A stretch of 40,691 bases of DNA from a virus. Location of the stretch: the IMG/VR virus record IMGVR_UViG_3300009285_002085; one strand, written 5' to 3'. The position numbers and the translations under genes are program-made. This document shows positions 14,101-16,469 of the stretch, one piece after another. Numbering within the stretch: the first letter of the stretch is position 1; every line of letters begins with the position of its first letter. The notes beneath the pieces were generated by a model that searched no databases, had not been told where the DNA came from, and worked only from the letters and a program-made list of their open reading frames with translations.

Positions 14101-16469
14101 GTTTCCATGCCTTGGCGTTTCAGGTCTCTTTCTTGTCTGCGCTTTTGTAAATCGAGCTTCTTGGTGACATTTTCGAAGGCAATACGGGCAGCTTGGGCTC
14201 TGATCTTGTCGTAACCTTCCGTTGCGGGAATGCCAACGGCAGCATCGGTACGACTGGCCGCATCGAAAAGGGCGTTGATGTCTTCGGTGGAGGTTATTTC
14301 TTCGTTTTGAAGTCCGGGCTCAGACGGTATTCCCTTAACTTCCATTGCCTGGGCGGGAACGGGGGTTATTTTTTCAGTCTTCGGAGGGCGGGATGGGGCA
14401 GGGAGGATTTTTATTTGATCGGGGAAAAATGCAACGAAGGTTTTTCCGCCATGCTCGCCATCAAGATAAACGTAACCATCATAATCATTTTTATCTATGA
14501 TGGCGAGCGCAGCTTTTTTTAGCAGTACTGACGCTTTTCCGCTTGGTGCGTTATCGAGTGCAAATTCAAGATTCATTCCAGACCCGCTTCGCTCTCCCCA
14601 CGCAGCATTCACGGCCCCTTCAAGATCCGAAAAATCAGTTGTCAAATAGTCGCCAATCACATATTCAACTCGTCCCGTATCTTCATTCCATGATTCATTG
14701 GCGCCAAGTTCTTCAGATATTAACTTGGCCTCCTGTTCTTTTTCGGTTAACCAATCAACGGATTCATCATATTCAAATCTTTCCGCTTTTAGTATAGCAT
14801 CTCGCCACTCTAAATCGTTGAATTTATCGAGGTCAAATGGATTTTTTATGTCAGCCACCACCTCGTACACTTGCCCCTTTCTGCCTGTAGAATATCCGGT
14901 GCTTCCGCGTTTTTCAGCATCGCTAAGCCCGGCATATATTTTTGCTACATCAGGAGAATCTGTTAAGAAGATACCTCCCTTGGGCAGTTCGCTCCTGGAG
15001 GAGATATTGAATATAGAAACCCCGCGCGGTTGCCCGGTATAAAGTCTTACCCCACCCCCAGTACTTGTCTCAGGTGGTATATTGTCCACCCTTGGTTCCG
15101 AGGTTATTGCGGAGGATGTGATTGCATTTTCAGTTAACGCCCTAAACTCTTTTTCTGCGCCCTCACTGATATCGCGGATGGCATCAAAACCGTCTGCCTT
15201 TATTTGGTTTATCTGGTCATCGGTAAGAAAATCATCTATCCCGTCGCCTTCTGTGTCTATTTCATAAATTTTCGCCTTTGGGTTTATCTTTGCCTCGAAC
15301 ACCTTATCTGTTCCGCCGATATTTCTGCTGTATTCCAGCGCGACTTCTTTATCGGTCGTCATAGAAAGCCCCGTAAGACCCACATTGCTTGAGGGTAATT
15401 TTTGTTTTTCCTCCGGGGTTAATATTGAAAACTTCTTGGTTAATGAATCAACGCCAGCGCCGCCGTGAAATACCGATTCTGGCATAGGAGTTGCGATCTC
15501 CCCCGCAGGCGAAACCTTACCCGTCTCAACGGTGGATATCTCCCCAGCGGCCTTTTCTGTGGCCGGGGCGGGTTGTTCCGGGGCTCCCTCAATCTTCGTT
15601 TCAATGCCAGGCTCCGCTTCCCCGCCGGCATATCTTTTCCTTAATGCATCCCGGTTCGCAGGGTCTTGCCACAATTCCCGGACATCCTGCGGGGTCAGAT
15701 CGCCCTCCATGATATCCTTCTTGATGCCCTCAACAAGGCCTCTCTCCTGTACGGTTAATCGATAGTACCATTCGGGCAGCTTCTGTATCTTCTCCGCGCC
15801 TTGCCCGATCAACTTGAAAATAGCCGCCTCGCCTGCAAACCCAAGAACGGCCTCAAGAAATGGACTGTCCCATGATTCCCCGACCAACGCTGCCGCCTCC
15901 CGCGCGGGCTTTGTCACTGCTTCAATCAACCTTCCGGCCTTGTCGAGAAATACCTTCGCCGGCTGCGTCTCGGGAGTAAATGTCAGCCGTCGCGCCGAGG
16001 CTTCGATGGTCGCCCGGACGCTCTCTCTGGTGGAACCGGGCTTTGTCGCTTCCGCTATTCCTAATCCGCTACTGACAAGCCATCCGGCGCTGCCGATGGC
16101 AAAAGACAAGCCGACTTCCCCCAAAGACTTCGGGATTTCAAGTATCTGGCGCACGGTGGAAATCAGCGTCGGGGCGATCTGCTCTGCCCACTTGTCGGGG
16201 AGCGAGGGCGTCTGTTCGCTTATCATGGAGGGAGGCAGGCCCGTCCTGTTTGACTGGGCGATGGAATAAATATCTTTCGCCCGTTCCGCCTGTGGCTTCG
16301 CAAGAAACCCATTCCACCATTCGGAAAATGATTCAGCGGTATCCTTTACCCTCAACGCTGATTCCATGGTCTGAGGCGCATCCGGCGGCTCTGGCTGCTT
16401 TGCCAACAGCCCCAACGGGTCAGATGATGCGGCAGATGATGTATTGAGAAGCCCCAGGGGATCGCTCAT
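11145..16469 (-). CDS. giant internal virion / DNA-ejection protein (T7 gp16 position, 1774 aa) with embedded globular modules
   Basis: It is syntenic with the T7 gp14-15-16 order. It has hydrophobic segments near the N- and C-termini, a long charged coiled-coil centre and two globular modules at aa 331-690. Confidence 0.75.
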   Translation of the reverse strand: MSDPLGLLNTSSAASSDPLGLLAKQPEPPDAPQTMESALRVKDTAESFSEWWNGFLAKPQAERAKDIYSIAQSNRTGLPPSMISEQTPSLPDKWAEQIAPTLISTVRQILEIPKSLGEVGLSFAIGSAGWLVSSGLGIAEATKPGSTRESVRATIEASARRLTFTPETQPAKVFLDKAGRLIEAVTKPAREAAALVGESWDSPFLEAVLGFAGEAAIFKLIGQGAEKIQKLPEWYYRLTVQERGLVEGIKKDIMEGDLTPQDVRELWQDPANRDALRKRYAGGEAEPGIETKIEGAPEQPAPATEKAAGEISTVETGKVSPAGEIATPMPESVFHGGAGVDSLTKKFSILTPEEKQKLPSSNVGLTGLSMTTDKEVALEYSRNIGGTDKVFEAKINPKAKIYEIDTEGDGIDDFLTDDQINQIKADGFDAIRDISEGAEKEFRALTENAITSSAITSEPRVDNIPPETSTGGGVRLYTGQPRGVSIFNISSRSELPKGGIFLTDSPDVAKIYAGLSDAEKRGSTGYSTGRKGQVYEVVADIKNPFDLDKFNDLEWRDAILKAERFEYDESVDWLTEKEQEAKLISEELGANESWNEDTGRVEYVIGDYLTTDFSDLEGAVNAAWGERSGSGMNLEFALDNAPSGKASVLLKKAALAIIDKNDYDGYVYLDGEHGGKTFVAFFPDQIKILPAPSRPPKTEKITPVPAQAMEVKGIPSEPGLQNEEITSTEDINALFDAASRTDAAVGIPATEGYDKIRAQAARIAFENVTKKLDLQKRRQERDLKRQGMETARQEPAFQAMEEAIKAGGLDKGALEKLYHKATVAELAAKRIGLVREGGTLGLDDLAARTGFESDDDLMTAMLDWAGLQEAGKKAADAFEAQYSELMTDAEMEDFHLQLLEEEAKILRKMIKETGKPSAPGIKKVIREQTGQIRVEELTVSTYEALTAGMKKAEQASRKAFREGKLDGALAEKERQIEMSKSRKEKLKAKEEAKAIHDGIIKLTKDKSIPEEYQERITDLLEGFDLLPRSKKTASRVESAREFLERQKQSGEDVTIPESMLNRIERYGKTHWRELTLDQLREIYDQAQMYAHIGKLKNKLIAAGKKRDFEKTVAAIVTEVGKNWGVKAATPEELESMFLEPTFGEKLGDFKQSYLGSLTKVETYLRRLDGFKDMGTAWENVYLPVKQASDVEYRNLADITNELKDLFGPMRKTLTKEKFKIPGVNQFLTRETVIMTALNSGNEGNLAALRENNIYGWDSGQIAKILANVTPEEWLLVRGIWDLFEKQYPGLAEVYKNLSGTTLKKVEGDYFPLVFDRKLSWIADRNATEKELRDFFQSIYTLPSVRTGSTIERTGGKLPPKLKFTVIFEKLAEINHYITHAEAIRDVQKIVGDPRVRAAIEGAPSGIGGPEAYKEIMSWLQDNARQQIDPLSAVESAIKTARINTTTVAMGWKFSTAASQFLGLGNTIYKIGPTETAKALIEFYTDREALVEKIKGMSAEVAGRAKSFDRELRDAYNRIGLEHFRGSSVLKDSFFSIISLMDMAVAYPTWLGAKNKGMKELGGDETKAGEYADMILRTSQGAGLVKDLAGIQRGSELKKIVSMFYTFFSAYHQMMADAWLKFKFDKSGHNFVDLMRAWWWLTIMPAAVWYMIRERDIPSPGTLLKEVLQQRLTAYPVVRDITSVALTGYSYSLSPIAKAGETTARALKEGAKIITPGEEVEFDKLFKAGFESAGYFTGLPTAQAIITMQGFIDLKNGETSDLTRLMFRAPREDNE

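Follow-up and report, generated by a model that had tools for sequence, protein, structure and literature searches.

ADP-ribosyltransferases (ARTs) are the commonest protein-modifying domains of phage polyvalent proteins, where one protein may contain a single copy or many, and injection has been predicted for them (PMC5512222). One of their clades, ART-PolyVal, is defined by a His in strand 1, a Tyr in strand 2 and an Asp in strand 5 (the H-Y-D configuration), and has been grouped with Tox-ART-HYD2 (PMC5512222). The prototype of head-packaged ARTs is T4 Alt (PMC9503650), whose targets are the RNA polymerase of the host and further proteins (PMC5512222, PMC9503650). In a survey of viral proteomes, any ART was found to be encoded by only ~3% of podoviruses and siphoviruses (PMC9503650). 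Here we describe an uncultivated virus, IMG/VR record IMGVR_UViG_3300009285_002085, whose 40,691-nt sequence (the window, i.e. the whole stretch of DNA that was analysed) corresponds in size (~40.7 kb) and in its genes to a complete podophage genome, and which encodes, in one open reading frame (ORF) of 1774 codons, a giant protein with two ART-like modules in its N-terminal half.

The reading that we favour, and consider probable though far from settled, is that a BPP-1-like podophage has here a polyvalent internal virion (ejection) protein with two ART-superfamily cassettes in a variable effector slot, which would be injected and of which module 1 at least would modify host macromolecules. 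An earlier note, made from the DNA letters, had described an AT-rich insert of two modules in this protein and had likened them to the ARTs of polyvalent proteins. That interpretation was largely right, the protein being a further example of ART-bearing polyvalent virion proteins.

Two ART-like modules of separate origin

An exhaustive phmmer search of residues 320-700 against 1.84 billion representative proteins returned 70 matches, which split into two non-overlapping footprints, on query positions 10-135 (residues 329-454, module 1) and 150-372 (residues 469-691, module 2). Since both footprints are found together in a single fragment only, which shares 99% identity with the window protein, the modules are separate evolutionary units, and the proposed division into two is borne out by two independent sets of relatives. 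A direct hhalign comparison of the two families gave a probability of only 6.8%, which rules out that the modules arose by a recent tandem (internal) duplication; as far as their sequences tell, they would be connected only via canonical ART-PolyVal domains. Two of the three motifs that the earlier note saw as common to both are real, aromatic-H/T-G corresponding to ART strand 1 and G-h-S/F-x-T-D..A..Y to strand 2 and its helix. The third (KIYEID in module 1, VYEVVADI..DLD in module 2) is not the catalytic strand: KIYEID forms an inner strand, and the conserved acidic residues (D429 and E441 in module 1; D664, D670 and E672 in module 2) are found further downstream.

Several other searches returned little. 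Neither phmmer nor profiles, for which the segment and the alignments of both families served as queries, found anything meaningful among PDB sequences, the only matches of module 1 being designed ankyrin repeats over 30 residues only, which were treated as spurious. A word-index homology search with the excised modules retrieved no protein for module 1 and one for module 2. By tblastn, neither module has a match in 50,697 GenBank phage records or 72,556 PLSDB plasmid records, and megablast of the gene against GenBank phages and PLSDB plasmids gave no match for the modules either. The window protein thus carries two ART sub-families without a match in isolated-phage records, one of which is invisible to Pfam and the other devoid of the canonical His. 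Both are compact and well-bounded units of ~125 and ~220 residues, suited to direct expression and assay.

Module 1, a divergent ART of compact size

In the window protein itself, module 1 has no Pfam match at E <= 10. Among the 33 members of its family, ART-PolyVal is matched in 12 at E <= 1 (best 1e-6), the PARP catalytic domain in five and KptA/Tpt1 in three, all of which belong to the ART superfamily. Individual copies remain below the gathering score of the ART-PolyVal family PF18760 (31.2), with 17.8 bits for P0004 and 26.2 bits for P0038, and hhalign aligns the family with canonical ART-PolyVal domains with a probability of only 42.6%. A small profile made of these canonical domains matches many module-1 copies (P0035 at 2.4e-8), among them the one in the fragment that is 99% identical to the window protein (0.0024).

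An AlphaFold model of module 1, built on 16 locus-derived sequences, has a predicted local distance difference test score (pLDDT) of 77.1, reaching 80-92 in the core, and a predicted template modelling score (pTM) of 0.73. When it was compared with the PDB using Foldseek, PARP4, tankyrases, PARP1, exotoxin A, diphtheria-toxin homologues and KptA came out in the lead, and nearly all of the top 50 matches are PARP, tankyrase, exotoxin A, diphtheria toxin or KptA. Among predicted viral structures there are 24 matches at E <= 1e-3, where proteins named after ART-PolyVal reach 1.8e-6; the matches include proteins named ART-PolyVal-like or PolyVal ADP-ribosyltransferase, a MuF fusion and an N4-like virion RNA polymerase, as well as giant proteins with a 'crystallin beta/gamma motif'. 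The family matches in Pfam, the match to the canonical profile and the predicted fold all agree, and support the view that module 1 is an ART, as the earlier note had suspected, although a divergent and compact one of ~125 residues.

The invariant or near-invariant residues of the family are H335-G336, G367, S369, D412, D429, E441 and R443. In the model, H335 ends strand 1 (strand 8-11), S369 is in strand 2 and D429 stands directly before the next-to-last core strand (106-109), a modelled arrangement that has the His ending strand 1 and the acidic residue starting strand 5 of the ART fold. D429 also aligns with the Asp of the Y-D-G motif of canonical ART-PolyVal domains. Y380, which is the majority residue in its column and not an invariant one, is in the helix following strand 2, at what we take to be the position where diphtheria toxin has its second nicotinamide-stacking Tyr.

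Module 1 is also under strong constraint. The closest relative of the window protein, P0002 (2075 residues), is encoded on a syntenic 26-kb metagenomic contig (L001), and module 1 is 75-84% identical to its counterpart there, against 42% in the flanks. In this comparison (Nei-Gojobori), the proportion of non-synonymous differences (pN) is 0.094 in module 1 and 0.37-0.40 in the flanks, while that of synonymous differences (pS) is saturated at 0.78, as in the flanks. The excess identity is hence due to strong purifying selection, which is good evidence that module 1 is functional.

Which substrate it would act on is another matter. Instead of host proteins, the ART domains might modify nucleic acid, nucleotides or small molecules, or they might simply deplete NAD+; precedents would be DarT-like ADP-ribosylation of DNA, KptA-like RNA 2'-phosphate chemistry and Arr-like modification of small molecules. 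The H-Y-D configuration is also found in ARTs that do not target proteins, and KptA/Tpt1 is among both the Pfam and the fold matches of module 1, although these matches are weaker than those to PARP and ART-PolyVal. Sequence discriminates between no substrates, and we regard this alternative as unlikely.

Module 2 is an ART-PolyVal domain without the canonical His

Module 2 matches PF18760 above the gathering score, with 41.5 bits when the whole protein is searched and 47.9 and 43.5 bits with excised pieces (E = 3e-12 to 3e-10). In four of its relatives (P0008, P0011, P0012 and P0019), positions 1-140 of the profile are covered over ~215-233 residues, so that the whole unit of ~220 residues is one ART domain with a long insert. 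This insert is helical and ~90 residues long in module 2, and canonical members from Pseudoalteromonas phage Y7 and Shewanella phage Y11 have similar ones. Among the relatives are polyvalent proteins of the classical type, in which module 2 is found together with MuF, Alt-type ART, NUDIX, LPD1, InPase and Kinase-PolyVal domains: P0008 combines an Alt-type ART, MuF, ART-PolyVal and NUDIX, P0011 LPD1, InPase and ART-PolyVal, and P0012 ART-PolyVal and Kinase-PolyVal. When the family was aligned with five canonical ART-PolyVal domains, hhalign gave a probability of 96.8% (E = 2.8e-10) and placed the Y-[T/S]-G-Q-P motif of the sub-family on the canonical Y-H-G.

This alignment exposes the main peculiarity of module 2, in which T478 occupies the position of the defining His, and Thr or Ser is found there throughout the sub-family. 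The latter comprises at least 19 clusters at 50% identity, all of them metagenomic, and no relative was confirmed in IMG/VR and GTDB genomes. The earlier assignment of module 2 to the ARTs therefore stands as to family, by the Pfam score and the hhalign probability, but not as to the canonical catalytic His. Other key residues are kept, namely F501, Y512 and D664 (the Asp of Y-D-G). Because a Phe at the strand-2 position is also found in high-scoring canonical members, the loss of the His is the only unusual substitution. In addition, R492, E494, D670 and E672 are invariants specific to the sub-family. Module 2 may be active with a remodelled site or act as a non-catalytic partner.

The second possibility is that of one active enzyme and one pseudo-enzyme. 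In this scenario module 1 would be the working ART, and module 2, deprived of the His that contacts NAD+, would have ceased to transfer ADP-ribose and would serve in binding, targeting or scaffolding, for example as a reader of ADP-ribose or NAD+, as a substrate adaptor or as a packing element. The replacement of the His by Thr or Ser in every member of the sub-family, right on the canonical column, is in accord with it, as is the presence of a second ART, His-bearing or of Alt type, in the same polypeptide in the window protein, P0008, P0016 and P0052. On the other hand, the Asp of Y-D-G, Y512 and the aromatic F501 have been kept, the four new invariants look like a remodelled active site rather than decay, and P0011, P0012 and P0019 show no other ART by Pfam. 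We hold a pseudo-enzyme to be possible but not the probable state of module 2.

Pairs of ARTs do recur in these proteins. In P0005, P0033, P0035, P0030 and P0059 (loci L004 and others), a canonical His-bearing ART-PolyVal domain is found 5-45 residues upstream of a module-1-type domain, while the order is reversed in the window protein, where module 1 is followed by the His-less variant. A more daring idea is that in the module 2 sub-family the ART fold has been re-engineered and has gained a new arrangement for catalysis or ligand binding (invariant R492-x-E494 and D670-x-E672). It would cooperate with a second ART that has the His and is injected as part of the same polypeptide, for example as a pair of writer and adaptor or reader. 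We consider this a long shot; if true, the recurrent tandem would be an obligate two-ART device and not a case of redundancy.

A giant protein with an exchangeable slot

The ORF was proposed to occupy the position of gp16 in T7, and the internal virion genes and tail fibre or spike gene that flank it bear this out. Upstream are genes for a homologue of tail tubular protein B (phrog_376), a GNAT acetyltransferase, an internal virion protein (phrog_418) and a 589-residue ORF, while a tail fibre or spike with an N-terminus of the T7 gp17 type is encoded downstream. As expected of a polyvalent protein, the ORF is a giant multidomain one among virion genes, in the run from the internal virion proteins to the tail fibre. 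Of the disparate activities that such proteins combine in one polypeptide, only the two ART-type domains can be recognized in it, and scans with Pfam and phrog assign no activity to the N-terminus or the C-terminal body.

The rest of the protein reveals its kinship. Tblastn against the 50,697 phage records retrieved 46 records, all of which cover residues 726-1772 only, with identities of 22-35%. Among them are BPP-1 and its kin, Pseudomonas phages AF, UFJF_PfDIW6 and HU1, Xanthomonas CP2-like phages, Caulobacter phages, Vibrio phages and Cobetia phage Carin1. The homologues in these phages are giant as well (2052-2854 residues) and encoded just before a tail fibre or spike. Their N-terminal halves contain LPD22 and one further domain, which is PBECR1 in Bbp10 of BPP-1, PBECR5 in gp32 of Cobetia phage Carin1, LPD23 in gp16 of Pseudomonas phage AF and a GNAT domain in NVP1185O_18 of Vibrio phage 1.185.O. 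The diversity of these domains identifies the chassis as a recognized polyvalent protein with an exchangeable middle, so that the giant ejection protein of BPP-1 type would offer a slot that is filled by ARTs, nucleases, GNAT or LPD23 in different phages. The two observations that would have spoken against the earlier interpretation, i.e. no ART match or the same segment in all relatives, were looked for and neither was made: the phage records share the C-terminal body with the window protein and do not carry the segment.

P0002 has three stretches in common with the window protein, namely residues 1-22, residues 307-454 (linker and module 1, 75% identity) and residues 683-1771 (42%), and 408 unrelated residues take the place of module 2. 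This stretch, which follows module 1 at residues ~589-1017 of P0002 (L001:11766-13052), is made up of two cassettes of ~205 residues bounded by three linker repeats. The repeat is 33-48 nt long and encodes PTPSLPPEAVGGI, and over 48 nt two of the copies share 96% identity; cassettes may be exchanged by recombination at these joints. In the window, the linker between the modules (IPPETSTGGGV) resembles the repeated PPEAVGGI linker of L001 at the peptide level only. Copies of module 1 with 65-67% identity are found in giant proteins that are unrelated in their other parts, and at different positions: at residues 1279-1412 of a 3018-residue protein whose gene directly follows the portal gene in a different phage (L002), and at residues 621-746 in P0004.

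Base composition and the origin of the cassettes

That the segment at 14400-15480 is AT-rich, as was first noticed from hand counts, is confirmed. In a 200-nt profile, GC is 0.41-0.495 at 14300-15500 and 0.54-0.61 on either side; overall it is 0.447 in the segment, 0.578 in residues 1-330, 0.550 in residues 691-1100 and 0.527 in residues 1101-1774. GC at third codon positions (GC3) is 0.406 in the segment and 0.63-0.64 in the other parts of the gene (Fisher test, p = 1.2e-15). The 360-codon window of lowest GC3 in the gene begins at residue 326, which is also where the change-point on the N-terminal side is found (~326), whereas the one on the C-terminal side is more gradual (~690-726). Genome-wide, the segment is the fourth-lowest non-overlapping 1080-nt window in GC, and hence one of several low-GC islands. 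Three 1-kb islands have a lower GC (0.39-0.415), at 9211-10290, 34611-35690 and 7291-8370, the first of which falls in the distal tail spike.

The carriers of module 1 are mostly phages of low GC (28-43%), and in each of those with a higher GC (the window, L001 and L008) the GC3 of module 1 is lower than in the remainder of the gene. This is also true of module 2 in L005, with a GC3 of 0.39 against 0.56-0.60 in the host gene. Together with the patchy and position-independent distribution of the modules, this supports the notion that the cassettes have moved horizontally, as domains, from a low-GC pool. The description of the segment as a foreign insert is therefore upheld by composition and distribution, but it does not extend to a recent arrival, as synonymous sites are saturated relative to the closest relative (pS 0.78). 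A recent transfer of module 1 between the window and L001 was dropped on the same grounds. The ART cassettes keep their low GC3 in several carriers despite this saturation, for which a single old acquisition does not account.

It could be objected that low GC is no mark of foreignness, the ART domains being old residents whose AT-rich synonymous sites are kept by selection (for translation rate or mRNA structure) or by chance. L001, relative to which the synonymous sites of module 1 are saturated, has this module at the same relative position with a conserved linker upstream, and the genome has further low-GC islands, all of which would suit old residents. This explanation nevertheless seems improbable to us, given that the modules are below host-gene GC3 in all the carriers of higher GC that were examined (the window, L001, L008 and L005), that most carriers are low-GC phages, that L001 is without module 2 and has unrelated cassettes bounded by linker repeats in the slot, and that known relatives have entirely different domains there.

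Proposed role

In the model that we favour, the giant protein would consist of three parts, an N-terminus specific to the lineage, an effector slot of variable content and a C-terminal body (~1000 residues) that is conserved, with both slot cassettes being related to the ART-PolyVal (N4-ART, H-Y-D) clade and probably drawn from a low-GC pool of domains that move between unrelated giant virion proteins. Module 1 would be a minimal ART, with H335 as strand-1 His, D429 as strand-5 Asp and an extra invariant E441-x-R443. The protein would be packaged in the head and enter the cell with the DNA, whereupon module 1 at least would spend host NAD+ to ADP-ribosylate host macromolecules before phage genes are expressed. 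By analogy with T4 Alt and AcrIF11, the purpose may be host takeover or anti-defence. Packaging, exit with the DNA and ADP-ribosylation of the host are what the family and the precedent of T4 Alt suggest. Since virion-borne ARTs act before phage transcription, they are candidates for the first move in taking over the host or disabling its defences.

Several points weigh against this scenario. In module 2, the canonical strand-1 His is replaced in the whole sub-family, and the AlphaFold model, from an alignment of three sequences only, has a pLDDT of 39 and a pTM of 0.26. In module 1, a Ser is found where canonical members have the strand-2 aromatic residue, and the Foldseek E-values against the PDB are modest (1.3e-3 to 5e-2), with template modelling (TM) scores of ~0.45-0.5 on the query. 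Pfam at E <= 10 did not reveal in the window protein the LPD22 domain that the BPP-1-type relatives typically have, virion presence and cell entry are read from gene order alone, and the saturation of synonymous sites between the window and L001, which includes module 1, leaves the persistence of low GC3 not fully explained.

Features of the locus

The features discussed here are collected in the table below. The N-terminal region (residues 1-306) has no Pfam match at E <= 10, LPD22 included, and its similarity to P0002 is limited to residues 1-22. These residues (16404-16469, minus strand) contain a doubled DPLGLL motif that is kept in P0002, and the N-terminus of Bbp10 of BPP-1 has a doubled FDAAVAG motif. 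Such doubled N-terminal motifs may be packaging or docking signals. The stand-alone GNAT acetyltransferase, which sits between tail tubular protein B and the internal virion proteins and is missing from the syntenic contig L001, may be a second virion-associated effector; in a Vibrio-phage relative, GNAT is found inside the giant protein instead. No RNA family was found when the whole window was scanned with Rfam.

Table. Features of the giant protein and its neighbourhood. Residue n of the 1774-residue protein corresponds to window bases 16470-3n to 16472-3n, so that residues 331-690 are 14400-15479.
Feature	Residues	Position in window	Strand	Basis or remarks
Giant internal-virion polyvalent protein	1774 in all	11145..16469	-	single ORF in one open frame; gene order matches L001, BPP-1, AF and Carin1
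N-terminal region	1-306	15552..16469	-	GC 0.58; two hydrophobic 19-mers (residues 121-139 and 204-222)
Module 1, compact divergent ART domain (predicted)	329-454	15108..15485	-	family alignment, AlphaFold model, Foldseek, PF18760 matches of the family
Module 1, H335-G336	335-336	15462-15467	-	
Module 1, S369	369	15363-15365	-	
Module 1, Y380	380	15330-15332	-	
Module 1, D429	429	15183-15185	-	
Module 1, E441	441	15147-15149	-	
Module 1, R443	443	15141-15143	-	
Inter-module linker, ITSEPRVDNIPPET	455-468	15066..15107	-	between the two homology footprints
Module 2, ART-PolyVal with long helical insert	469-691	14397..15065	-	PF18760 above gathering score
Module 2, Y477-T478-G479-Q480	477-480	15030-15041	-	
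Module 2, R492 and E494	492, 494	14988-14996	-	
Module 2, F501	501	14967-14969	-	
Module 2, Y512	512	14934-14936	-	
Module 2, D664	664	14478-14480	-	
Module 2, D670 and E672	670, 672	14454-14462	-	
Conserved C-terminal body	770-1757	11199..14162	-	phrog_9880 (E = 1.6e-138); in common with BPP-1 Bbp10-type proteins
Stand-alone GNAT acetyltransferase, outside the ART insert		18707..19258	-	PF13508 and PF00583 above threshold; phrog_1249

Comparison with known systems

The T7 gp16 protein, which is assumed to leave the capsid at infection, is comparable by its very large size and by the place of its gene, the virion genes of the window being arranged in a T7-like order. No sequence homology between gp16 and the window protein was detected, and its N-terminal enzymatic domain is a lytic transglycosylase and not an ART. 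The resemblance is much closer with the Bbp10-type proteins of BPP-1 and its relatives, which have the same genome position, the C-terminal body of ~1000 residues and a variable middle with an effector-type domain, but start with LPD22 and carry PBECR1, PBECR5, LPD23 or GNAT where the window protein has two ARTs.

AcrIF11 (identified with PDB 6KYF via a paper that cites this structure), a phage and plasmid ART that ADP-ribosylates the type I-F CRISPR complex, is likewise compact (~130 residues), comes from mobile elements and has a proven anti-defence role. Its structural match to the model of module 1 is weak (Foldseek TM 0.44, E = 0.049), there is no sequence similarity, and AcrIF11 is a free early protein and not virion-borne. 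T4 Alt is the functional model, as an ART that the virion contains and that is delivered together with the DNA (PMC5512222, PMC9503650). Alt belongs, however, to the R-S-E Alt/VIP2 clade and is a separate protein of a myovirus rather than part of a giant ejection protein, and no sequence match between it and the window protein was found.

The closest counterparts of the modules themselves are the ART-PolyVal/N4-ART domains (PF18760; Iyer et al. 2017, PMC5512222). The two modules depart from these in different ways, module 2 by the Thr or Ser that its sub-family has for the defining strand-1 His, and module 1 by being shortened (~125 residues), invisible to Pfam, and endowed with a strand-2 Ser and an extra strand with an invariant E-x-R. 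They are nevertheless related to them, module 2 by passing the threshold and module 1 by its predicted fold and its family, and the setting is the same, i.e. a giant protein of the virion module with more than one ART per polypeptide and a predicted delivery with the DNA.

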